Source: Sarea resinae
Taxonomy: Eukaryota
Direction: 5' to 3'
Length of the DNA: 20,000 nucleotides
NCBI GenBank assembly: GCA_026026165.1
Contig: JAPEUD010000050.1
Span: forward strand, 172,281 to 192,280
Made by a program: the position numbers and the translations under genes. This document shows, piece by piece, positions 3,001-19,116 of this stretch. Position 1 is the stretch's first letter. Each line of letters starts with the position of its first letter. The notes below the pieces were generated by a model. It did not search any database. It had not been told where the DNA came from and saw only the letters and a program-made list of their open reading frames with translations.

Positions 3001-3488
3001 ATATCCCCACGACTTGGAAACGGACTCGAGTTGGTCCGCGCGGAACCTGAACGCACGGAGAGGCACTGGAATTACACTGCGGACTCAGATATACCGGTGC
3101 ATGGACGAGATATACGCATGTGGGATGCATCCTGCATACTCCGGTACTAGCCCTAGAGAGCTGGGCATGCCGCGCTTGACGTAACTGGTGAGATAATACC
3201 CTGTGGCCCCTGTGGGCCTGCCTCTTTCAGCCTGTCCGTTTGCTGGCATCGTCAAATGCGCATAATCATGGCCTTAGTCCTTCAAAACCAGTCTTTCGCT
3301 ACATACTTCCTCCATCTTTATCATTTCCCTAGAGTTTCCCCCATCATTATCATCACTTCTGCACCAGCCGAATCGTAAACTTCAGGCCTCGCCGGGAGGA
3401 GATTCACGACTCGCGAAGCTGGGAGCGTTCTCAGACCCGTTTCACGAGGCAACACAGACCTTGAATAAGACGCCCTCCCCATCTCAAG

Positions 3489-5864
3489 ATGGCCCCACGA
3501 ATCCCCCGGCGGTTTTTCAAGCCGCTCCTCTACACCTCTGGTGCGGCCGCAATGGGCGGTGGGCTGCTATATATCCAATGGAGACCGCGAGAGATCAAGG
3601 GAGGCGAACCTGCCGCGGTCCCACCTCCTGGTTACGGAGCAGGAGGAACATTCGTGCCTCCACACTTCCCACTGGTAAAGTCTCGGGAGGAGCAAATAGC
3701 GGATCTCAAGCGGTCAGGAGGAGTCAAGCAGACCGTTGAGAAGGCCAAGGATGGCATTAATGGCATATCCGAAGGCATCTCAGAATGGCTGGGCGTCAAA
3801 GGAGACGAAACTTATGACGTTGCTGACGAGGATGGTGCTGAACCGTATGATCTTTTGATCATTGGCGCTGGCGCAACCGGCTCGGGCATTGCTCTCGATG
3901 CAGCGACCAGAGGCCTCAAGGTTGCTGTAGTCGAGCGAGATGATTTCAGCAGCGGCACGAGCAGTAAGAGCACAAAGTTGGTACATGGTGGTGTAAGATA
4001 TCTTGAGAAAGCCGTTTTCGAGCTCGACTATAACCAGTAAGCCGATAATTTGCGTTGAACGCATTTCCATCTCATGACTGATTATGTGACATAGATATTC
4101 CCTCGTCAAAGAGGCATTACGAGAGCGGAAGTATTTCCTGGATACTGCTCCGCATCTATCGAACTGGTTGCCCATCATGGTCCCCATCGACAAGTGGTAC
4201 AAAGCACCATACTTTTGGACTGGTACAAAGTTTTACGACTACCTTGCTGGATCGGAAAATATTGAGAGTTCTTATTTCCTGACCAGAAGCAAGGCTCTTG
4301 ATGCCTTTCCGATGTTAAAGAAGGAAGGCTTATTTGGCGCTCTTATATACTATGGTACGTTTGGCCGCATCAGACAAACTTTTCGAAGCTGACTGTTGAA
4401 GATGGCGCGCACAATGATTCGCGAATGAATGTCTCCCTAGCAATGACTTCTGCGCTCTACGGTGCCACTGTGGTCAACCACATTGAAGTGACAGGGCTGG
4501 AAAAGGATGCGTCCGGAAAACTGAGTGGTGCACGAGTGAAGGATCTCGTGACGGAAAAGAATGGAAGGACGCCCAAGGAGTTCAGTATCAAGGCAAAGGG
4601 CATAATCAACGCCACAGGTCCATTTACCGACTCGATCAGGAAGATGGACGACCAAGCGGTCCCTGAGATTGTTGCCCCTAGTTCGGGAGTACATATCATC
4701 TTGCCGGGATATTTCAGTCCATCTAGTATGGGCTTGATTGATCCCTCAACATCCGATGGCCGTGTCATTTTCTTCCTCCCATGGCAGGGTAACACGATCG
4801 CCGGAACTACCGATGCGCCGACCAAAATCAGTCAAAATCCTGTGGCTGGGGAAGAGGAAATCGAGTGGATTCTCAAAGAAATACGTGGCTACCTCGCTCC
4901 TGATATAACCGTTCGACGAGGAGATGTCCTAGCAGCCTGGTCCGGAATCAGACCTTTGGTCCGTGACCCTAATGCGAAGAATACGCAGTCTCTTGTTCGA
5001 AACCATTTGATTACCGTGTCGGATTCAGGCCTGATGACTTGCGCTGGTGGTAAATGGACCACTTACCGCCAGATGTCCGAAGAAACGGTTGATGAGGCAA
5101 TCAAGTACTTTGGTCTCCGTACAAGGGCTATTACGGATCCGCCAAATGTGAGCGGCATGGGATTTGCCAACGACGAAGCGATTCTGGATGGATCATGCCA
5201 GACGCATCGCGTCCGGCTTGTCGGTGCACACGGCTTCTCTAGGACTCTGTTCATCAACTTGATACAGCACTTTGGCATTGAGACGGATGTTGCAAAACAC
5301 TTGACGGAGTCTTATGGTGACCGTGCCTGGACCGTTGCTTCCCTATCATCGCCAACGGATAAACATTTCCCTGTTCGAGGTATCCGTCTTTCTCCTCTTT
5401 ACCCTTTCATCGATGGGGAGATTCGTTACGCGGTCCGTCATGAATATGCCCAGACTGCAGTTGATGTCTTGGCTCGACGGACGAGACTTGCTTTCTTGAA
5501 TGCACAGGGGGCATTGGAAGCCTTACCGTCGGTCATTGATGTCATGGCGGAAGAGCTGCACTGGGACAAGAAGAGAAAAGATGTCGAGTGGAAGGAAACG
5601 ATCAATTTCTTGGGCTCGATGGGCTTGCCACAGAGCAAGCTTGGTCTCTCCCGAAAGCAGGTTGAGAGTGGCATCTTGAGCAAATTCCTGGCGAAGGAGG
5701 ATAACACGTACGCTAGGCATGGTAAGCTGTAACGCCCCACCTCGTCGAATATATCGAGCTAAATTTTCCATCTAGATTCCCCGGCTGATACTCTGGAGAG
5801 TGACTCAAAGTTCGAATCGGGGCAAAACCCCGTAGTTGGGACCGAGTCTCCTGTAAACAAATAG
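3489..5864 (+). CDS. GUT2: Mitochondrial FAD-dependent glycerol-3-phosphate dehydrogenase, 738 aa; exons 3489-4036, 4095-4354, 4402-5721, 5776-5864
   Basis: FAD-binding motif [23 protein letters not shown], plus [54 protein letters not shown] and [12 protein letters not shown]. The N-terminus is Arg-rich with a hydrophobic segment, resembling a mitochondrial targeting sequence and anchor. Introns 4037-4094 (gtaagc..tag), 4355-4401 (gtacgt..gctgac..aag) and 5722-5775 (gtaagc..tag) join the exons in frame, 2217 nt in total. Confidence 0.95.
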
Positions 5865-7062: not shown

Positions 7063-9800
7063 ATGTCTGGCACGGGCGCCCATGCCGCGAACAGAGGTCC
7101 AGCTGTCATTGGTGTGACGACTGCCACGATTGCCGCCGCTACTATATTCGTCTTCCTCCGCCTATGCTCTCGTGCGTTCATTGTTAAGAGGATCTCATGG
7201 GACGATTACGCCATCTTGGTAGCATGGGTCTGCATCTCGCTGGTCCGCATCAGGGTTTTGCTAATTGAGCCCTAGATTGTCTGCCTCGGCTTTTCCTTCG
7301 TCATCTGCTATGCCACCTCTGTTGGCTTAGGTCGTCATGAAAAAGCCGTACCAGCAGACTCGGAGCCAGCTCTGAGAAAGGCCGAGTTCGCCATCTCGAT
7401 TCTCTACGTATGAGTCCCATTCTGGATATCGTCGTCTTAGCTAATCTGATCAGAACCCGGCTTTGATGTCAACGAAGACCTCTGTACTGCTATTCTACCT
7501 TAGCCTATCTAAAAATGATCCAGTCTTTCGATGGGAGTCCCTGATCACTCTCATTGTTGTGAACGTTGCTGGATTAGCTCTGACCTTGCTCAATGCCTTC
7601 CAATGCCGTCCGGTCAGGGCAGCATTCCAGTATCCAACCTCCGCCACGGCACACTGCACTGATGTTGTTGTACTCTACCTCTCGTCAGCCCCGGTCAACA
7701 TTCTTACGGATATGGCTATATTTTTCATCCCGCTGCCGATCCTGACATCTATGCGTCTACCTCGAAAACAAAAGATCATCTTGATCATCACTTTTGGCGT
7801 TGTGGCATTCGTTGGCGTTGTTGATGTCATTCGAGTTGGATTCCTCCAGCAAGCATTCTCAGCTCGTCTGGAGGAGAGCCGGACTGGCAATCGCCTTTAT
7901 AGCGACGATCCTGCCAGTTTGACGGACTTCTCCTGTATGTTAGATTCCTTGCCTTCGAGCACTTCCACTGATACGCTTAGGGTACGGGTCATACTCATTC
8001 ATGTGGTCGGCTATTGAGGCAAACGTTGGACTCCTTATTGCCAACGTCCCAGGCCTCAAACCACTCGTGTTTCGTTTCATGCCACAAATTCTCCGCGATA
8101 CTACCCAAGATAGCGACGGCACGGGAACTAGGTCCTCTGAAGCTCAGAATCAAGCCTTAGCTGAGGCACCAGCACAGCGGTTACCTTCGGTTGCCGAGCC
8201 TCTACGCCGACCTCTCACTGGAAATAATGAGCAAATCAACGTCCTAGATTTTTTAACGACTCCAGATATGGCCTCAGCAAGTCCGGACGTGGCACTAGAT
8301 AACCCAAGAAGCCGAACTGCTACCACCGTTACCCACAGTACCAAGGCCGAGGGTGCTACGTCCTTTGATTTCGTCAATATCAAAAATCCGAAAAGTATGG
8401 TGAAGATGAACGCTAAGGAATCACTATTCCCGGTGGGTATCATAACGATCATCTTCTTTCTATGGGGCTTCGCCTACGGATTACTTCAAGTTCTGAACAT
8501 GCAGTTTCAATCTCTCGAGGGTTTAAGCACCGGCCAAACCTATGGTCTCCACAGTATATACTTCGGAGCTTATCTTATTGGACCACTCACTCTGGGACGA
8601 TATACACTCAAAAAATGGGGTTTCAAAGTGACTTTTATCGGTGGCTTGGCTATATACAGCTGTGGTACTCTTATCTTCTGGCCATCGGCAGTGCTGACCT
8701 CCTTTGCTGCATTCATGGTATCTAATTTTGTTGTCGGATTTGGCCTCTCTATTTTAGAAACTGCCGCAAATCCATTCATAGCTCTCTGTGGGCCTCCAGA
8801 GTATGCGGAGGTTCGTCTCAACTTCGCACAAGGCATTCAGGGGATTGGTAGTTTGGTATCCCAAATTCTTGCTCAGAGAGTGTTCTTCCGGACTGCCACC
8901 GGACCCGATTCTCTTACAGACGCTCAGTGGACCTACCTTGGTATTGCGCTATTCGTCAACTTGCTTGCCCTTGCCATCTACTACATTCCTTTACCAGAAG
9001 TCTCTGACAGCGATCTCAGGGAGCTTGCATGGAAGCAGCAGTCTGAAAAGCCCATCAAGATTGGCGGAATATCTATCGTGAATATCACCCTGGCTCTAGG
9101 TGTCTTCTCTCAATTCTGTCTTATTGGTGCGCAAGAGACAATCTCCGTTTCTTTCAATACCTTTATAGGTGCGATGCATCCTAGGTAAGCTCAACTTCCC
9201 TCTGTTACAACCTTCTGCTCACGAAAAAGCCCCACGCCTCTATCAGACTCAGATTACCTAGCCCTAGGGCACACGACATTTGCTGTTGGCCGTTTCGTTG
9301 CTATGGGGGCCTGCTTCGTGATCAAACCGCGTTGGGTCCTGCTTTTCTTCTACATTGGAGGAGTTGTCACATCAGCGCTGACGATGACCTATACGGGAGA
9401 CACCGGCATAGCAATGCTTATCCTGGTTTTCTTCTTCGAGGTGTGTGTACCAAGCTGCACTCGCGAACAGTACTAACCTTTCCAGTCCGCCATCTTCCCT
9501 ACCTTGTTCGCTATATGCCTGCGCGGGCTCGGCGCCCGGACAAAGACTGCTGCAGCCCTTCTGACCGCCGCCGTCTGCTCAGGCGCAATCTTTCCTCCCG
9601 TCGCAAACCCCATAGCAGAAAACCGAGGACCACTGTACTCCTTTTGTATTGTCGTTGCTCTTTTCTCTTTTGGATCCATCTTTCCAGCTTATCTGAATCT
9701 CGTTCCTGCGGCAAAGAAGCATGTCGATCCAGTGTCGGAGGACACAAATGCCCTCTTTGAACAAAGCTGGCCCGGCCACCGCGAAGTTCCCCATCAATGA
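7063..9800 (+). CDS. Fusion protein, 835 aa: N-terminal Pth11-like 7-TM domain, Ser/Thr-rich linker, C-terminal FucP-like (L-fucose/glucose-galactose permease) 12-TM MFS domain; exons 7063-7227, 7276-7407, 7454-7934, 7981-9184, 9230-9440, 9486-9800
   Basis: Pth11-like motifs: FLRLCSR, WDDY, GLGRH, KTSVLLFYL, FQCRP, NILTD..IFFIPLP, LPRKQK, WSAIEANVG..ANVP. FucP motifs: FFLWGFAYGLL, YFGAY, GLSILETAANPFI, RLNFAQG, QFC.IGAQ, FAVGRF, FESAIFPTLF. Five introns of 45-48 nt have branch points (ctaat, ctaat, ctgat, ctcac, tactaac) and give 2508 nt in frame. The domain junction lies inside exon 4. Confidence 0.88.
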
Positions 9801-11128
9801 GAATTTCGACATATACTAGCGACTGTATAATTGGTTAACAAGAATGGGAGGCGAATTAGGTGTTTTGTTATTTTCCCTTCTGGGCTGTTGCATTTTGGCG
9901 CGGAGTCTAGCATTTGGAGCTTTATATCTGATACTCAGCCCGGGTAGCACAGAACCGGCATTACAGGGTGTTGGAAAATTTCGCAATTCCATCACCCTCG
10001 TACACAATTGTCTAGGCATTTTTCATTGTCATCAACGGTCATGTTGAGTGCTGTAGTAGATTCTTCTCATACAGTAGCAATAGTTAATCATCAGACGAAT
10101 CTCATGTCAAAAGGGAATCTAGTTGATGGTTTGAGTTCTGTTGCCTTTCCTGATAGCACAAAGTACCACGTTGTCTTCATCACGAATAATCCAAGAAGCT
10201 CAATCTTCTACGAAAGGTGAGAATATGGGGCTATGGGTATACTGACAGGACTGGTCGACCAATCGCCCTCCAACGAGTTTCGACACACGCGTTCATCGAA
10301 CGACTCAAATAGTACCTGGAAGCTTCGATCATGACGCCTTCATGAGCTGCTCTCTAGACCAACCTCCATCGAACGTCTCAAGCATCAGAAGCGTCTCGGG
10401 GCCACGCCTTGTCGAGAGTCTTGGTATTGGAGAACGCAGCCCGAGCAGTGGCTTTGGCTTTCGAGCACCAACACCGCCGCTCCTGATCGTAACTCTACAG
10501 TACCCCGCCTCCTAGGTACGAAGTACAGTACGGAGTCTGAAGATTAAGAGCGAATTCTCCCAACCCAACCTTTCTCTGCCACCGTCACCGACATCTCAAT
10601 CGTACAGTAAGGCAGGTAAAGTAAGCTCCAGACCACAGTCTCGCCCGCCTTCGTCCGAGTCCCATCCATCAATGCTTTTACTACAACTAGAGACGCACGA
10701 CTGACGCAGAGGATCGCGGGGTCGTCGGCCGCGGAGGGGTACAGCTGAGCGGGGTACGCGGCCGAGTCCAGCGTGTGTTAGGTGGGGCACTGTCCAATTT
10801 ACCTCGTAGTACTTCGTACTCTACTCCGATAGTCACTTAACTCTAGAGAGACTGAGGACAGCGTATCGCCATGTTTGGGCTCTGGGGCAGCAGTGGCAGG
10901 CTTGAGCGCGAGCGTGAGGACCGGGGGAGACAGACTCCTTGCCTGCCATTGCCATTGCCATTCCTCGTACGAGAAATGCTTTCGTGGTCCGGCCCCGCGG
11001 TCTACTCATAGTACTTCATTCGACGGAGTACTTCGTACCAAGGTCACTTTACCCACCGAAACGTGTGGAAGGGTACACGATACGCCCCCGGACTTAACGG
11101 GAGATAATGACGTTCGACTCTGCACCCT

Positions 11129-11216: not shown

Positions 11217-11253
11217 TCAGCATCGGAAACCTGTCAGCATCGGAAACCTGTCA
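11217..11253. repeat. Perfect 17-bp tandem duplication (TCAGCATCGGAAACCTG x2 plus TCA) in the AKR 5' leader
   Basis: Copies at 11217-11233 and 11234-11250, with the partial third copy ending just before ATG 11256. Confidence 0.9.
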
Positions 11254-11255
11254 TC

Positions 11256-12464
11256 ATGCCTCCACAGCTAGCTACGCGTCAACTGGGCAAGGACGGCCCC
11301 AAGGTCACTGCCATTGGCTTCGGCGCTATGGGTGAGTTGAGAGTACATATAGTCTTTGGAACCTAAGGGCAATGCAACTGACGAACATCTGAATGCAAGG
11401 CCTGAGCGCTTTCTACGGAAAAACTGCCTCGGACGAGGAACGGCTGAAGGTCTTCGATCGAGCTTACGAGCTGGGACAGACCTTCTGGGATAGCGCAGAT
11501 ATCTACGGCGACAGCGAGGATCTCATCGGAAAGTGGTTCAAGAAGACCGGCAAGCGGGACGAGATCTTCCTTGCCACCAAGTTCGCCAATGCTGTCAACC
11601 CCGACGGCTCTCGCAAAATCGACAGCAGTCCGGAGTACTGCAAAGCGGCCGCCGAGAAGAGCTTGAAGAGGCTCGGGATCAAGACCATTGACTTGTACTA
11701 TTGCCATCGTCTCGACCAGAAGACGCCTATCGAGAAGACCGTGCAGGCCATGGCGGATCTCAAGAAGTGAGTTGATTTCCATTCCTATAGTCATGCGAGT
11801 CATATCACTGACATCGTCGACAGGGAGGGCAAGATTCGATATCTGGGATTGAGTGAGTGCTCGGCTGAGTCGTTGCGTCGTGCATATGCCGTCCACCCGA
11901 TTGCCGCTGTGCAGATGGAGTACAGCCCCTTCTCGCTCGACATCGAAAGCCCCCAGACCAACCTCCTCAAAACCTGCCGTGAGCTCGGCGTGGCCGTCGT
12001 CGCTTATAGCCCTCTTGGACGTGGCTTCATGACCGGTCAGTACAAGGGCCCCGAAGACTTCGACGAGAATGACTTCCGCCGCGTGCAACCTCGCTTCTCC
12101 AAGGAGAACTTCCCCAAGAATCTCGAATTGGTTGAGAAGTTGAAGTCTATCGCCGAGAAGAAGGGCTGCACGGCTGGCCAGCTCACGCTGGCTTGGCTGC
12201 TGGCCCAGGGTGATGACATTCTTCCCATCCCTGGAACCAAGAAGGTCAAGTACGTCGAGGAGAACCTCGGCGCTCTCAATGTGACGTTGACCCCCGAGGA
12301 GGAGAAGAGCATCCGGCAATCGATTGAGAGCTGCGAGATTCACGGAAGCCGATATGCCCAAGTGTGAGCGTCCTCGAAGTCCGCGCATGTTCTGTCCGGC
12401 ATGATACTGACTTGATCGCAGTGCGGGTCTGTCTCTTTTCGCGGACACCCCTCCACTGCAGTAG
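11256..12464 (+). CDS. Aldo-keto reductase (YakC/plant auxin-induced-like AKR), 341 aa; exons 11256-11331, 11400-11766, 11824-12363, 12422-12464
   Basis: Starts with IGFGAMGLS and keeps the catalytic tetrad in WDSADIYG (D, Y), FLATKF (K) and LYYCHR (H). Also [38 protein letters not shown] and a C-terminal FADTPPL. Introns 11332-11399, 11767-11823 and 12364-12421 give 1026 nt in frame. Confidence 0.93.
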
Positions 12465-12726: not shown

Positions 12727-13081
12727 CCTACCTCACGATGCAGCCCCGAGGCGATGTAGTTTCGGGAAAATAATATTCCGGCCCATGTATCCCGTCAGGT
12801 CCTGGATCGTCCGTCCCAGCAGATTCGATGGATCTGAGATGGCGAGGGAGTACAGCATATACATAGTAGAGTGACTGTCTGCGTGGTGGATGAATTCGAG
12901 GACGGGGGCCCGTGGGGATGGAAGATATATTGAAGCAAATGATGGCAATCATCGATTCCGGCCTGACAACGTGATGTCGACCAGAGGCGTTGATGGATCC
13001 GGATCATTGATCACGGATCGATCTACGGCGGAGAATAAATATGCAAGGACGGCTGGCAGCACGGGTGGTCGCGCGACGGCC

Positions 13082-13090
13082 ATTGGCGGA
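13082..13090 (-). promoter_or_regulatory. Putative galacturonic-acid-responsive element (GARE, TCCNCCAAT) upstream of the repressor gene
   Basis: The + strand reads ATTGGCGGA, the reverse complement of TCCGCCAAT, about 495 bp upstream of ATG 13586. Confidence 0.5.
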
Positions 13091-13179
13091 GAAATATCGA
13101 AGGGGGGTGCCGCGAAGGGAAAGACAGGCGAAGAGTGGCCGATCTCCGTCCGTGTCGGCAATTTGGCGATGGGATGGGT

Positions 13180-13209
13180 GAGGGAGAGGGAGAGAGGGAG
13201 AGGGAGGAG
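13180..13209. repeat. GA-rich purine microsatellite
   Basis: The stretch reads gagggagaggggagagagggagagggaggag. Confidence 0.7.
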
Positions 13210-13398
13210 CTACGCAGGTCAAGCTAGGGAATTCATCATCATAATCTCCCTCATCCGCCCCCTCCCCATTGCCTCCACGCCGACCGAGACCGTATTATTG
13301 TCGACCATCATACGGAAAAAGCTACCAGCCACTTCCGATAGATCATCCGCTCGCTGGCCTTTGCGGGGAAAGGAAAGACAGAAAGAAACACCTCAAAG

Positions 13399-13450
13399 CC
13401 CTTTCGCCTTCTCAGCCTCCCTTCTCCCTCTTTCTTCTTCTCTTGCTCCG
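13399..13450 (+). promoter_or_regulatory. CT-rich (pyrimidine) core-promoter tract upstream of the repressor gene
   Basis: The tract ccctttcgccttctcagcctcccttctccctctttcttcttctcttgctccg lies 135-190 bp before ATG 13586. Such CT boxes commonly precede fungal transcription starts. Confidence 0.4.
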
Positions 13451-13585
13451 CCCAATCAACCTAGCGATGAGCTATCTCGTTGCGCATTCCCGTCAGCTGA
13501 ACACCTCGCGCCGTGTTCTCTCCGAGCTTCAACACCGGATCAACGGCTTCAACATCTACGGCTGAGCGCCTTGCTCCCACGACCG

Positions 13586-15646
13586 ATGACCGTACTGGAC
13601 GAAAAGCATTCCATTGCTTCTATTATGCGAAATGAACCCTCGCCGACCGACTGCCAGGTAGACTCTGGGACCGGAAGGAAGCCCGACCACCGCGCCGTTG
13701 TCGTCGTCTATGAGGATGGCCAAGAGGATATCATAGCTCTGGTGGCCGACGTCTTGGGGAAGCCGTCGCAGCTTGTGTCGACGATATCGGCGACGGAGGA
13801 GACAGGAAGCCCGGCCGTGTTCGGGATTGCGGGTGAATGCGCCAAAGACGGCCTGAGGGGACGAGCGAAAGACGTAGTCGTCGTTATCAATACTCGATGT
13901 ATGGATGCGCGCAATATTTCCGACAAGACTCTCTCCGACGAATGCGATTACGAGTTCCTGTATACGCATACGCCTTTCTTGCGAAGGGACCTGACGCGCT
14001 TTCTCTCCTTTGTCCTGGGGCAAAAGAATCATCACGATGACCTGTTGAAAAAGTCCAGAACGTCTTTCATCTCTACGACATTCCCTGATGTGCGCACAGC
14101 ATTATCCAATCTCGACATCCTTTCCGTCGGCTCGGATGCCGTGGAGATCAGGGTCGACCTGCTCCGAGAGCCCAAATGCGATGGCACCTTTAGTGCAGTG
14201 CCGAGCTTGGAGTACGTTGGAGAACAGGTCATGCTGCTTCGACAGCGTTCCGAACTCCCAATTATATTTACTACGAGGTGCACCAAAGAGAACGGTCGAT
14301 TTCCTATGGATAACCCAACCCTATACTATGACTATTTATACAAAGCTCTGCAGTGGGGATGCGAATACATTGATGTCGAATTGTGGCTGCCCGAGGATAT
14401 TAGGATGCGCCTGGCGGAGCAGAAGGGCTACAGCAAGATCATCTCCGCTTTCCATGACTTTTCAGGGAATTGGAAATGGTCGTCTCCAGAAGCACAGAGG
14501 ATCTTCAAAGAGCTAGCGAAATATGGCGATATCGCGAAGATGATTGCGCTAATCACGTCGATGAGTGAGAATTACGAGCTGGAGCTGTTCCGATCTGGCA
14601 TCAAGTCCAATTACGCTCATCCTCCCCTATCTGCCGTCAATATGGGTCCCATGGGACAAATGTCTCGAGCTCTCAATTATTTCTTCACGCCGGTCACACA
14701 TCCTCTCCTACCGATGATAGCCGCGCCAGGACAGCTGAGTGCAGCAGAGATCAACGATGCTCTCCGCATCATGGGCCAAATTCCCAAGCGAGATATCTTC
14801 GCCATAGGGACTTCTAGACCTACGCCTCAATCCGTGTTCTTTGAAAAGTGCTTCAACGAGCTGGGCGTACCGCACAGTTTCGCGTGCGTCGACCGCGGCC
14901 CAAAGGGTTCAGTGGAGGCTATCATCAAGAAACCTAACTTTGGCGGCGCCTACCTCAATCCACCACTGAGCAGTTCTTCCGCTCCTTATTTGCCTTCTTT
15001 AAGTAATGCTGCACGGTCTATCGGTCACATAGATACCATTACCATTCATGGCGATGAATGCGAGCAATGTCCCTCTCTGACTGGCCACAATGCCTCCTGG
15101 AAAGGTATCCGCGCGACGCTCACGAGAGACTTCGTCCCTTCGGCGTATCGAGGCCGGGCAGCGCTCGTCCTATCCAGCTCCGAAGTTGACGCTTCGGCGG
15201 CAATCTTTGCCCTGCAAGATCTCGCGGTTCAGCCCATTTACACGATCGGATTCAAGGCTCAGGGACCCTTGGCATCGATGTCGGCACTGGAACCATTGAC
15301 TTCTGTTGAAGATGCCTCAAAGATTGAACAGCCCTTTGCGCTCGTCTCGGCCCTACCGCCAGAGAAGTCCCATTTCGCAGTTCCTTTACTCAAATTCTTT
15401 AGTCAAACTAGTGGCAAGGCGCGCTCGCCCTCCCCTTCGGAGAAAATGACGGGAAGAGTCTTTGTAAATCTCGCGAAGGGATCGAGTAAGGGGGACCCCG
15501 GAGCTGTTGCTGCAACTACGGGCTGGACTGTGTATGGGAGCGACGAAGTGAGCGCTTGGACGACGGTCGAGATGATGAGGTTGTTGGTCGGGCAGAATGT
15601 GCCGTGGGATTTTGTGCGCATGGCTTCGGGAAGGTGCCTTTATTGA
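13586..15646 (+). CDS. gaaX: AROM-derived repressor-type protein (degenerate shikimate-kinase-like region, type I 3-dehydroquinase domain, degenerate shikimate dehydrogenase domain), 686 aa, intronless; probable GaaX orthologue
   Basis: Type I DHQase motifs AVEIRVD, PIIFTTR..ENG, YIDVEL, ISAFHDF, DIAK, NMGPMGQMSR and AAPGQL, followed by an SDH-like region (FGGAYLNPP, IGHIDT, GHNASWKGI). The domain order matches the C-terminal half of AROM, as in QutR/QA-1S, GaaX and TanX. It lies next to a Zn2Cys6 gene and has a GARE upstream. The start is set at the ATG after a CT-rich tract. The family call is strong; the gaaX orthology is inferred. Confidence 0.75.
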   Translation: MTVLDEKHSIASIMRNEPSPTDCQVDSGTGRKPDHRAVVVVYEDGQEDIIALVADVLGKPSQLVSTISATEETGSPAVFGIAGECAKDGLRGRAKDVVVVINTRCMDARNISDKTLSDECDYEFLYTHTPFLRRDLTRFLSFVLGQKNHHDDLLKKSRTSFISTTFPDVRTALSNLDILSVGSDAVEIRVDLLREPKCDGTFSAVPSLEYVGEQVMLLRQRSELPIIFTTRCTKENGRFPMDNPTLYYDYLYKALQWGCEYIDVELWLPEDIRMRLAEQKGYSKIISAFHDFSGNWKWSSPEAQRIFKELAKYGDIAKMIALITSMSENYELELFRSGIKSNYAHPPLSAVNMGPMGQMSRALNYFFTPVTHPLLPMIAAPGQLSAAEINDALRIMGQIPKRDIFAIGTSRPTPQSVFFEKCFNELGVPHSFACVDRGPKGSVEAIIKKPNFGGAYLNPPLSSSSAPYLPSLSNAARSIGHIDTITIHGDECEQCPSLTGHNASWKGIRATLTRDFVPSAYRGRAALVLSSSEVDASAAIFALQDLAVQPIYTIGFKAQGPLASMSALEPLTSVEDASKIEQPFALVSALPPEKSHFAVPLLKFFSQTSGKARSPSPSEKMTGRVFVNLAKGSSKGDPGAVAATTGWTVYGSDEVSAWTTVEMMRLLVGQNVPWDFVRMASGRCLY

Positions 15647-16410: not shown

Positions 16411-19116
16411 ATGTCGAGCTCGCAGGTCGGTATTGAGCGGCTGCCAGCTCGATCGATGAGCAACGAACCCCGCGAATCGATGAACTGCAAGTCGTGTCGC
16501 AAGCGAAAGGTAAGAACGGGACCCTGCAGCAGCTGCCAAGGCGACTCGTCGCACGACGGCAAAGAGAGAGAGATTTGATCATTGACATCTCATCCAAGAT
16601 CAAATGCAATCGAATCCGGCCAGCCTGCAAGGCGTGCCAGGTCTTTGGCTGCTCGTGCATCTATGGTACGCATAAACACGTGCACCTTTCCATGTTCGGC
16701 ATCTCGACACCTCGACACGCCATGCTCATCCTCTTCCAGATGCCGTGCCGAAGAAACGAGGCCCGAAGACGGACGTGCTCGAGGCACTGTTGAAACGGGT
16801 CGACGGGCTCGAGAAGCGGCTACAAGAAGAGACGAAATCAGATGGACCGGGCGTTGGCGCCAGTGGGACAGCGAACGTCTCACCCAAGTCGGAAGATGTG
16901 GTTTCACAGCCAAGGGTGCAACATGGCCTGCCTGCTGAGAGCTTTCCTCTTCAGGCAAACCCTAAACAAAGGTGCGAATAAATCTTCATGTTGGCGATGG
17001 ATAGATGGATCTCCGAACTGATGGCCTTTCGTAGCGAGGATCCGAATACCAGCTCGGATATATCGCCGGACGACCTCTTTGATTCGTACTTTTCACACTT
17101 GCACGGGAAGCCATTGTACATTTTAGACGAACGGGTGGTCCGACAAGGCCATCAAACAAAACAGCTGCCATCTTGTCTTGCAATGGCCATCTATGCTCTC
17201 GGCGCACGGTGAGTAGAAGACGTTCATGGACGGAGCTTGACTGACATGTCCAGCTATGCCATGCATCCTGGAGGATATAGTGCCGCAGAGAGACTAAGCA
17301 GAGATTACGCACTGAGAGCGCGAAGCGAATTAGACCTGGATGATCCGACCATCGATAACCTACAGACTGCTCTCCTACTATCACTTACTTTCTTCGCCAT
17401 TGGACTGTGTAAAAAGGCATACATGGTGTTCGGTAGGTTTTGCTCTTTGGCCCAGTCAATGACCTCCACTGATAGACTCTAGCTACCGCTGCGGGAATGG
17501 CGATTGCGCTTGAACTCCATCGCGAGGTCTCTCCCAAAGCCGCAATGAATCCGACCGAGCGAGAGCTCCGACGAAATCTTTTCTGGGCGTGCTATACCAT
17601 GGATCGATTTCTGGCATGTGGTTCTAAAAGGCCCTCGTTGCTCGCCGACGAATCTATCACCCTGAGATTACCGACGTGGACACCCCATCCGACGGCCAGA
17701 CCTGTTGAGGGGGAGGTATTTTCAAACGGATCGAACCTTCAGTACTACTCCGCCTCCGGTAGAAAAGGACAAGGAGCTACTGGAATGCTTATCGACATCG
17801 TTCGGATTCTAGGCATTACGAATCGATACCTTGCCGCAGGAGGCGTGAAGGGGGACTCCCATTTTCCCTGGCATTCCCTCTCGAACCTCTCGAAAATAAG
17901 ACAAGATCTGGACCTCTGGGCGTCTGGGACCCAGGACATGTTCAGCTCTGTCGAAGCGTTGTTTGGCCAGGGGCAAAGCACCGTCCTGGTTTTCAGCAAA
18001 CTGATATACCATCTCATCCATTGTCTCATATACCGGCCTTTTCTCCCCATCGATCTAGCCGAGCTTTCGGGGACAGGGGAGCACCAGTCCTGGCAAATCG
18101 AAGCGACGAATCTATGTTTTCTTCATGCTAATGCCATCGCCGAGCTTGTGGAACTTGGCCGTAGCTCTCCAACAGTCGAATGGCCGTCCTTTGTTGGATA
18201 CTGCATCTTTACTGCCGCGACCGTGCACGTGCACGGAGCATGCTATCGTGGAGTGTCCAGCGAAGTTTTTACTTCTAGCAGCGAATTCTTAGGACGAGAA
18301 ATGAATCTGCTGTCGGAATTGGGGTGTCTGTGGCGCGGGGTGCGGCATCAAGGTACCACGCTGCAGAAGATATATGACTGCCATTCGCATATGGTCAAGA
18401 CACTGGCGAGCAATTCGATGCGCTTCTCCCCAATCTTCCATCTCGAAGACTTCTTTGAACGATATCCCGGCCAAGTCATTTGCGCGAGCCATTTAGAGCT
18501 GAGGGATGTGCAGGATGGAGATGGACAATTGGACGGATCTGGCCCGTATGCTGCAGTGGGGGTGGTTGGCGCTCCTTTGCAGCAGCAGCAGCAGCAGATA
18601 GGTGGTCCACTGTCATTCGATCCATCAATCATAGGCATCCAAGCCGGGCCTTCTCAACCAAACTCGATGCAGCCGCCTACTACGCAAGTTCGAAACGATG
18701 ACGACTCCAATTCCAACTCCAATGGCCCGTTTCAGCTAGACCAGGCATACAGCAGCAACGAGATGGCACCTCCCCAACCATTCTCACCTAGCTTTGACTT
18801 CTCACTGCCTTCAGGCTCTGCGGAGCCCCAAGGATCGTTCGACCCGATTTTTGGCATCTCCACCCCGTCTGCTACCTCGGCTCTCACCTTTGGCCAGCCG
18901 TCTAATTCGTCGACCTCGACGCAAGCCCAAGCCTCTTCAGCCAACACGACGTCGCCCAACGCTACCACGACCAGCACCAGCAACACGGACACAGACCTCG
19001 ACGGCACCGGCACCGGCGACCCTTTTCTTTCGCTGCTCGAGCAGCTGGCCGAGAACGAGTATTCTCAGGGTGAAGGGCCGAGCGAGTTGGACTTCTTCCT
19101 CGGCGGCCAGGAGTAG
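16411..19116 (+). CDS. gaaR: Zn(II)2Cys6 transcription factor with fungal-specific middle-homology domain and acidic C-terminal tail, 794 aa (alternative starts 16456 or 16480); probable GaaR/PDR-2 orthologue; exons 16411-16509, 16599-16665, 16740-16971, 17035-17208, 17254-17432, 17483-19116
   Basis: The spliced Zn cluster reads [28 protein letters not shown], followed by KKRGPK (NLS-like) and a coiled coil [15 protein letters not shown]. The middle domain has [22 protein letters not shown] and [17 protein letters not shown]. The tail is [20 protein letters not shown]. Five introns give 2385 nt in frame. The gaaR identity is inferred from adjacency to the AROM-like repressor and the GARE sites, not from an alignment. 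Confidence 0.75.
18580..18597 (+). repeat. (CAG)6 polyglutamine tract within the transcription factor
   Basis: Six consecutive CAG codons give QQQQQQ. Confidence 0.9.

Follow-up and report, generated by a model that had tools for sequence, protein, structure and literature searches.

Filamentous ascomycetes, a group that includes many plant pathogens and lichen fungi, have in the Pth11-like proteins one of their largest receptor-like families. To our knowledge, these proteins are orphans almost without exception, with neither a ligand nor a partner known. In yeast, the transceptors and transporter-like sensors Snf3/Rgt2, Pho84, Gap1 and Mep2 signal via their own carrier fold and cytosolic tails. 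Here, a gene is described in which a Pth11-like seven-transmembrane (7-TM) domain and a major facilitator superfamily (MFS) sugar carrier are joined in one reading frame. The gene is located at 7063..9800 on the forward strand of a 20,000-nucleotide stretch of the Sarea resinae contig JAPEUD010000050.1. This entire stretch is called the window below.

For the two components of the protein, described systems are available for comparison. RhtA from Aspergillus niger is an L-rhamnose transporter and, according to the accessible part of the report, the first transporter with a FucP domain (FHS) to be characterised outside bacteria (PMC5161314). The structure of human GPR155 has been solved, and in the accessible part of that preprint it is presented as a transporter domain concatenated with a G protein-coupled receptor (GPCR) domain and termed a 'transceptor' (bioRxiv 10.1101/2024.09.24.614577). 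For a fusion of Pth11/Fung_rhodopsin with an MFS carrier, a full-text search of the literature yielded neither a description nor a functional study, in line with a preliminary description of the window that knew of no functional study; the supplements of a GPCR-classification preprint may list such architectures. The architecture has already been catalogued automatically, both among precomputed Pfam pairs and as an ESM Atlas cluster of 60 members named 'Fungal rhodopsin/Major Facilitator Superfamily domain-containing protein'.

One open frame across two membrane domains

The gene model, derived from open frames, comprises six exons on the forward strand (7063-7227, 7276-7407, 7454-7934, 7981-9184, 9230-9440 and 9486-9800) and ends with the stop codon TGA at 9798-9800. 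Each of the five introns has GT..AG borders and a length of 45-48 nt. The spliced translation of 835 aa is letter for letter the database protein P0002, 'MAG: hypothetical protein M1819_005072 [Sarea resinae]'. S. resinae is placed by taxonomy look-up in the Sareomycetes (leotiomyceta, Pezizomycotina). The junction lies within exon 4 (7981..9184), which encodes without interruption the last helix of the 7-TM domain (TM7), the entire linker and TM1-6 of the MFS domain. The open frame 7944..9188 spans the junction, and translation of 7983-9182 yields 400 residues and zero stops: it contains YGSYSFMWSAIEANVGLLIANVP, then the linker, then IIFFLWGFAYGLLQVLN. The statement in the preliminary description that the fusion sits inside a single uninterrupted exon and is no merger by gene prediction therefore holds. 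TM7 had been placed from 8004 and TM1 of the MFS domain near 8455. The codons of W268 and F418 start at 8004 and 8454, respectively.

A Pfam analysis, which had been proposed at the same time, finds both Fung_rhodopsin and MFS_1 above their cut-offs in the 835-aa protein. An AlphaFold2 model of the whole protein was calculated with 60 orthologues as input. It reached a mean predicted local distance difference test score (pLDDT) of 80.5 and a predicted template modelling score (pTM) of 0.78, and 122 of the 835 residues (15%) have a pLDDT below 50. The long helices of the model number 7 + 12, with the first set in residues 12-281, followed by a short helix 8, and the second in residues 404-811. 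This agrees with the 7 + 12 hydrophobic segments counted earlier. The distribution of Lys and Arg in the loops fits the suggested topology in which the C-terminus of the receptor part and the N-terminus of the carrier are both cytosolic. The bias is strong in the MFS half (19 K/R on the predicted cytosolic side vs 3 on the other side) and weak in the 7-TM half (13 vs 11, with 4 K/R in each of two short loops). Almost certainly, the gene encodes one 19-TM polypeptide, a genuine single fusion protein.

RNA was obtained from one wood-decay metatranscriptome run (X1), which contained 5% of the sampled words. One contig identical to the window joins 7167-7226 to 7275-7375 and confirms the splice between exons 1 and 2: the 48-nt intron 1 (7228..7275, +) is removed by joining 7226/7227 to 7275/7276 at GT..AG borders. 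A second contig covers the 3' end (9657-9900), reaches past the stop codon and differs from the window at 11 positions and by one 1-nt gap within 244 nt. It probably originates from a related strain or species. The region 7388-9618 is without any metatranscriptome contig.

Conservation of the fusion

Homologues were searched with exon 4 as query among proteins of more than 700 aa. The search returned 1314 matches, of which 120 were listed. All 120 listed homologues, with lengths of 722-1130 aa, carry PF20684 as well as PF07690, so that two-domain homologues are present in other genomes. Among those with a name are proteins from Aspergillus, Penicilliopsis, Venturia, Hortaea, Aureobasidium, Macrophomina, Xylona, Coniosporium, Friedmanniomyces and many lichen-forming genera. 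Fused homologues are annotated as 'MFS monosaccharide transporter', 'fucose permease' or 'Rhodopsin domain-containing protein'. The expectation that similar fusions are found in other ascomycetes under the name of fucose permease or the like was borne out.

When 1.84 billion cluster representatives (50% identity) were searched exhaustively with HMMER, 189 matched at E <= 1e-30. Among the best 150 of these 189 representatives, 80 match both the 7-TM and the MFS profile, and 52 of the 70 that match MFS only are fragments. Divergent fused members with 33-43% identity are found in Pseudogymnoascus, Hymenoscyphus, Chaetomium, Fusarium oxysporum, Microsporum, Penicillium and a bin labelled Tremellales. 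The fused members presumably span the Eurotio-, Dothideo-, Lecanoro-, Leotio-, Sordario-, Xylono-, Candelario- and Sareomycetes, an assignment for which Sarea and Candelina were looked up.

At the DNA level, 80 fungal metagenome contigs were compared. Both the end of the 7-TM part and the start of the MFS part are present in 64 of them, and in each of these 64 loci one open frame leads from the 7-TM end through the linker to the MFS start. In 17 metagenomic loci, the whole two-domain protein is a single open frame. Since some of the 80 loci are near-duplicates from related samples, fewer of them are independent. The 16 loci without both parts fall into two sets: in 10, the upstream DNA is too short for a 7-TM half (five with the match starting at the contig end, five on short contigs), and six have at least 1 kb of upstream DNA without a 7-TM match and look like standalone paralogues. 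Many database proteins that represent open frames only begin exactly at position about 89-93 (14/150) or about 249 (11/150) of the 7-TM profile. Because these positions match the sites of introns 2 and 3 in the window, both intron sites appear to be conserved in the family.

Averaged over columns in 60 orthologues, conservation amounts to 0.684 in the 7-TM half, 0.682 in the MFS half and 0.454 in the linker; both termini are lower. The alignments show constraint on the length and the motifs of the linker as well as on both halves. The fusion is genuine, old and widespread, and it has been kept in hundreds of filamentous ascomycetes of the crown Pezizomycotina.

The Pth11-like half

The Pth11-like/Fung_rhodopsin 7-TM domain together with helix 8 is encoded at 7096..8093 (+, interrupted by introns 1-3) and comprises residues 12-297. 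Pfam PF20684 matches residues 32-289 (E 5.4e-52, 177.1 bits, cut-off 27) and is covered almost from end to end (profile positions 1-235 of 237). In the AlphaFold2 model, seven helices are located at residues 12-41, 46-70, 82-117, 122-147, 170-198, 203-243 and 258-281, and the short helix 8 at residues 283-297. Hydropathy peaks were also computed. A CFEM domain (PF05730) had no match at E <= 0.01, and just 11 residues precede TM1. As it has no CFEM domain, the protein is designated 'Pth11-like' and not an orthologue of Pth11.

Seven residues (K107, C150, C167, D185, R226, W268 and E272) are common to all four standalone or CFEM-bearing Pth11-like proteins aligned. They can be read as a Lys in TM3, a pair of Cys in the outer loop, an Asp in TM5, an Arg in TM6 and a W..E pair in TM7, and, on the strength of this small four-protein alignment, may define the family. 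M104, S177, P179 and D223 are specific for the subfamily. Outside the fusion family, the named standalone proteins that are not partial and come closest to the 7-TM half share 25-33% identity with it. One named full-length protein from Purpureocillium reaches 45% identity and may stem from a split gene model. Short proteins with 47-69% identity exist as well. They are mostly unnamed, both labelled ones are 'partial', and many are located on short contigs. Since the hallmark residues are kept and the close short relatives are mostly partial or unnamed, the sequence comparison argues that the 7-TM half is not a decaying appendage.

The 7-TM fold was also modelled alone, using P0298, a partial orthologue that comprises the 7-TM half and the linker and is 59% identical to the Sarea half (pLDDT 79). 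In an exhaustive structural search with this model, Ste2, the fungal class D GPCR, ranked first (Z 17.0, rmsd 4.2, 249 aligned residues). It was followed at Z 13-16 by designed GPCR-like folds, TAS2R14, adiponectin receptor 2 (AdipoR2) and many class A GPCRs. According to the note of the structural-search tool, unrelated helical bundles reach Z about 13-14. Foldseek against the PDB, run with the same 7-TM model, returned no match at E <= 1e-3. Judged by the model, the term 'GPCR-type 7-TM bundle' describes this half, and no more.

Fung_rhodopsin domains are also found in another combination. An ESM Atlas cluster of 52 proteins with about 1015 aa contains Fung_rhodopsin, CFEM and the N- and C-terminal domains of GMC oxidoreductases. 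This means that the Pth11-like module is fused to at least two unrelated kinds of partners, an MFS carrier and a flavoenzyme.

The FucP-type half

The FucP/FHS-type MFS domain with 12 TM is encoded at 8412..9725 (+, interrupted by introns 4 and 5) and comprises residues 404-811. Pfam MFS_1 (PF07690) matches residues 417-767 with 41.9 bits (cut-off 33.4). The sole solved sequence relative is E. coli FucP (3o7q; E 1.1e-30, residues 405-793), which is also the top Foldseek match of the full model (E 4.5e-13, TM-score by target 0.76). Among the NCBIfam models, fucP, PRK10133 and gluP score best. The score for fucP (TIGR00885) amounts to 149.6 bits and lies below the equivalog cut-off of 280.4. By sequence, the carrier is classified as a member of the FHS family but not as a FucP equivalog, and because of the score below this cut-off its substrate cannot be inferred from FucP.

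In the accessible part of a study on FucP, Asp46 is regarded as the putative H+-binding carboxylate, analogous to LacY Glu325 and XylE Asp27 (PMC4882079). In the Sarea protein, this position aligns with Gln429 (codon CAA, 8487..8489, +), and FucP Glu135 aligns with Glu519 (codon GAA, 8757..8759, +). The two columns behave differently. The Asp46-aligned column contains D in 51, Q in 5, A in 3 and S in 1 of the 60 orthologues; in 215 complete fused proteins, D 114, N 42, Q 25, S 9, G 9, A 8, T 3, F 3, E 1 and L 1 were counted, and 32 of 50 standalone fungal relatives have D. The Glu135-aligned position is E in 60/60 orthologues and 208/215 complete fused proteins, and the TM4 motif LETAANPF is kept. 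In the preliminary description, a sugar:H+ symporter had been assumed. The assignment to the FucP family stands, but with Gln429 at the place of Asp46 and a variable residue at this position in the family, H+ symport is doubtful. Because of this Gln, canonical H+ symport by the Sarea copy is questionable by analogy to FucP, and the carrier more probably acts on a hexose or deoxy-hexose as a facilitator or as a ligand sensor with poor transport.

Another acidic residue was observed in TM7 of the MFS domain. E645 (window about 9135-9137) follows a conserved Gln, and the Q644-E645 pair corresponds to Q-T in E. coli FucP. E is present at this position in 204/215 complete fused proteins; the standalone relatives have E in 17/50 and V in 25/50 cases. 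Enriched among the fused proteins, E645 might represent an alternative protonation or substrate site.

The linker

The two halves are connected by a cytosolic linker of about 105 residues (298-403; 8094..8411, +) that is predicted to be mostly disordered. In the AlphaFold2 model, pLDDT is below 50 across residues 306-393, with one short helix at 347-352 inside. A Ser/Thr/Pro-rich linker of about 110 aa had been reported before. The linker is present at about this length, but it is only moderately rich in these residues (S+T+P = 28/95 or 29% in residues 301-395). Its length varies from 104 to 155 residues among the 60 orthologues, and two motifs stand out. Motif 1, DFLTTPDM (residues 349-356; 8247..8270, +), overlaps the predicted short helix; among 60 sequences, F350 and L351 do not vary, and P354 reaches at least 90% conservation. 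Motif 2, FDFVNxK..KSMV....ES (residues 388-407; 8364..8423, +), is located just ahead of TM1 of the carrier; here F390 is invariant, and D389, V391, N392, E406 and S407 are at least 90% conserved in the same set. By eye, a similar FV..(4)..KS.V..(5)..ES stretch can be recognised ahead of TM1 in two standalone Orbiliomycetes proteins. In-frame Met codons are found in the linker at residues 356, 399 and 402.

How the two halves might work together

With moderate confidence, the following explanation of the whole is favoured. The N-terminal Pth11-like 7-TM domain, predicted to have its N-terminus outside and its C-terminus in the cytosol, is tethered by the linker to a complete 12-TM FucP/FHS-type sugar carrier. 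Both halves would work together in cis, the 7-TM module serving the carrier as an integral partner with a sensory or regulatory role. This module could either report carrier occupancy inward, as a transceptor, or control the activity, stability or trafficking of the carrier. A functional coupling of the 7-TM and MFS halves in cis is reasonably probable. Signalling via a G protein and cAMP, that is, a transceptor in the strict sense, is doubtful. The AlphaFold2 model provides a hint, but only a hint, that the membrane domains are confidently docked: a pTM of 0.78 would otherwise be hard to reach with 122 of 835 residues below pLDDT 50.

Several points weigh against this explanation. Equal conservation of two fused domains is no proof that they interact. 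The resemblance to GPCRs is one of modelled fold only, with Z scores of 13-17 that lie partly in the range of unrelated helical bundles and an empty Foldseek result. Furthermore, the Asp46 position varies in standalone relatives, too; protons may be coupled elsewhere, and Gln429 need not abolish transport. Finally, the RNA is limited to 7167-7375 (spliced) and 9657-9900, so that a separate internal transcript of the MFS half is possible.

The alternative that survives best holds that the fusion is real but the 7-TM module a mere accessory for folding, membrane targeting, oligomerisation or endocytic control, without sensing or signalling. It is possible, though on the whole unlikely. A pTM of 0.78 is equally compatible with a tightly packed accessory domain, and the fusion of Fung_rhodopsin to an unrelated enzyme in the CFEM/GMC oxidoreductase cluster suggests a general-purpose membrane module. 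In addition, coupling of the family to G proteins is not established, and in the accessible part of a 2026 FEMS review Pth11 is listed in a table as 'non-classical' (PMC13308352). The polar residues K107, D185, R226 and E272, which are buried, are however fully kept, beyond the needs of a passive anchor, and the conserved cytosolic linker motifs suggest regulated interactions.

A far-reaching version of the favoured explanation can also be formulated, which at present is rather speculative and unlikely to hold in full. The protein would be a true 19-TM transceptor across crown Pezizomycotina, in which the 7-TM module reads the occupancy or conformational cycling of the carrier, or gates it, and a signal is passed on via helix 8 and the two linker motifs to cytosolic partners. 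The hundreds of orphan standalone Pth11-like proteins in filamentous ascomycetes might then generally be partners of membrane transporters or enzymes and not classical GPCRs activated by a ligand, and the CFEM/Fung_rhodopsin/GMC oxidoreductase cluster also points in this direction.

Very unlikely is a scenario in which the halves act independently because linker cleavage or an internal promoter yields a standalone MFS protein and the fusion merely ensures co-expression. It could draw on the disordered linker (pLDDT below 50 for 306-393), on the Met residues 356, 399 and 402 close before TM1 of the carrier, on the existence of standalone FHS relatives with N-tails of 19-62 residues and on a junction not covered by metatranscriptome contigs. 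Against it stand the narrow range of linker length and the motifs kept across many classes. In none of the 64 two-part loci are the parts encoded in separate frames, and co-expression alone would be a poor reason for one frame to have been retained for so long. An artefact of gene prediction that merged two adjacent genes has next to no probability and is ruled out by the sequence itself: nothing was found in its favour beyond some database entries that carry one half only, and of these the ones looked up either bear the label 'partial' or come from contigs of 1.6-2.1 kb, whereas no stop separates TM7 from TM1 of the carrier in the window or in any of the 64 two-part loci, and 17 loci encode the whole protein in an open frame.

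Origin of the fusion

Standalone FHS-type relatives are known from the Orbiliomycetes Drechslerella, Orbilia and Dactylellina (499-519 aa), from Basidiomycota (Mycena, Pholiota) and from Mucoromycota (Blakeslea). Within crown Pezizomycotina, standalone FHS paralogues occur beside the fusion in Hortaea and Tricladium/Hymenoscyphus varicosporioides. A first FastTree of 101 MFS domains required 18 changes of the label 'fused' and had one-domain rows inside fused clades. Eighteen of the 101 rows, judged to be truncated models, were dropped before the final trees, and the grouping was chosen post hoc, after the first tree. Five of the dropped rows were looked up: P0162, P0172, P0244 and P0237 come from contigs of 1.6-2.1 kb, and P0262 carries the label partial. 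The others are seven 'alone' and six 'alone with linker' rows. In the maximum-likelihood tree of the MFS domains without the 18 rows, two changes of architecture are needed. Placing all 25 standalone rows to one side of a branch gives a slightly better tree (log-likelihood difference +4.23), which is not rejected (p-AU 0.578). Hence, the sequences are compatible with a single ancient fusion in crown Pezizomycotina but do not prove it.

Neighbouring genes

An aldo/keto reductase gene (11250-12367, +) begins about 1.4 kb downstream of the fused gene. PF00248 matches its open reading frames 11393-11770 and 11771-12367, and the closest solved relative is the AKR13-type perakine reductase (E 1e-46). 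Of 42 metagenomic loci with at least 2 kb of downstream DNA, 9 have a homologue downstream of the fused gene, as do two loci with shorter flanks (altogether L002, L004, L010, L023, L024, L026, L027, L028, L032, L050 and L058), with up to 58-69% identity in the better-matching loci. The linkage is a case of partly conserved synteny. As a hint to the substrate of the carrier, the reductase was considered and rejected, since an AKR13/perakine reductase-like enzyme has no clear link to sugars.

A gene for a fungal-specific transcription factor (PF04082) is located at 17476-19116 (+), 7.7 kb downstream of the fused gene. In 5 of the 80 metagenomic loci (L047, L055, L069 and the near-duplicates L061 and L062), a homologue with 65-67% identity over 160-356 aa precedes the fused gene by 2-4 kb on the same strand. 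An ESM Atlas look-up returned the generic name 'fungal-specific transcription factor' only. The factor could be a dedicated regulator of the fused gene.

Between both genes, an open frame of 923 aa (12875-15646, +) contains a type I 3-dehydroquinase domain (residues 398-630, E 6.9e-56). We take its layout to resemble that of the QutR/qa-1S repressors of the quinate pathway, which are derived from the C-terminal part of AROM. Together with the downstream transcription factor it may form a qutR/qutA-like regulatory pair. Upstream of the fused gene, an intron-split gene similar to FAD-dependent glycerol-3-phosphate dehydrogenases extends from 3465 to 5732 (+). DAO matches its open reading frame 3465-4040, and DAO together with DAO_C, the C-terminal domain of alpha-glycerophosphate oxidase (E 9.4e-46), matches the open reading frame 4302-5732.

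Comparison with known systems and significance

A conserved single-chain fusion, which may have arisen once, provides a concrete and testable hypothesis, namely that a Pth11-like 7-TM fold works with a transporter. The protein is also an experimental handle, since its halves can be taken apart, exchanged and assayed in yeast or Aspergillus. If proton coupling has been lost in about half of the family, the fused proteins would constitute a natural series from transporter to sensor. If, on the other hand, the 7-TM half is only an accessory, the 'GPCR counts' in fungal genomes need to be reread.

With Pth11 and Pth11-like proteins (fungal GPCR class XIV, PF20684), the Sarea protein shares the full-length domain, seven helices, the hallmark residues and the range within the Pezizomycotina. 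It differs from them by the lack of CFEM, by a C-terminus that runs into a 12-TM transporter, by an identity of 25-33% and by conserved residues of its own. With E. coli FucP of the FHS family (TC 2.A.1.7), the best solved relative in both sequence and fold, the carrier half has 12 TM, Glu135 (E519) and LETAANPF in common. Unlike FucP, it scores under the equivalog cut-off, has Gln429 at the position of Asp46 and is preceded by an N-terminal extension of 400 residues with the 7-TM domain. RhtA is, like the carrier half, a fungal MFS protein with a FucP domain and indicates that fungal FHS proteins can carry deoxy-hexoses. The comparison is by description only: the accessible part of the report presents RhtA as a FucP-domain transporter without mention of a 7-TM part (PMC5161314).

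The yeast transceptors share the concept of a carrier fold that reports nutrient occupancy, as far as the accessible part of the source extends (cf. PMC3824880), and for a sensor-like carrier the loss of a coupling residue would be a parallel. Unlike the Sarea protein, none of Snf3/Rgt2, Pho84, Gap1 and Mep2 has a fused receptor-type 7-TM domain. The closest architectural analogue, judged from the accessible part of its description, is GPR155/LYCHOS, which combines a transporter and a GPCR-type 7-TM domain in one polypeptide. It is an analogue, not a relative: its transporter is PIN-like instead of MFS, it is a lysosomal animal protein, and homology is limited to the general 7-TM fold. The order of the domains is presumably reversed as well, with the 7-TM domain following the transporter domain in GPR155 and preceding it in the Sarea protein. 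Should its two halves prove to cooperate, the Sarea protein would be the fungal counterpart of this animal transporter-GPCR chimera.

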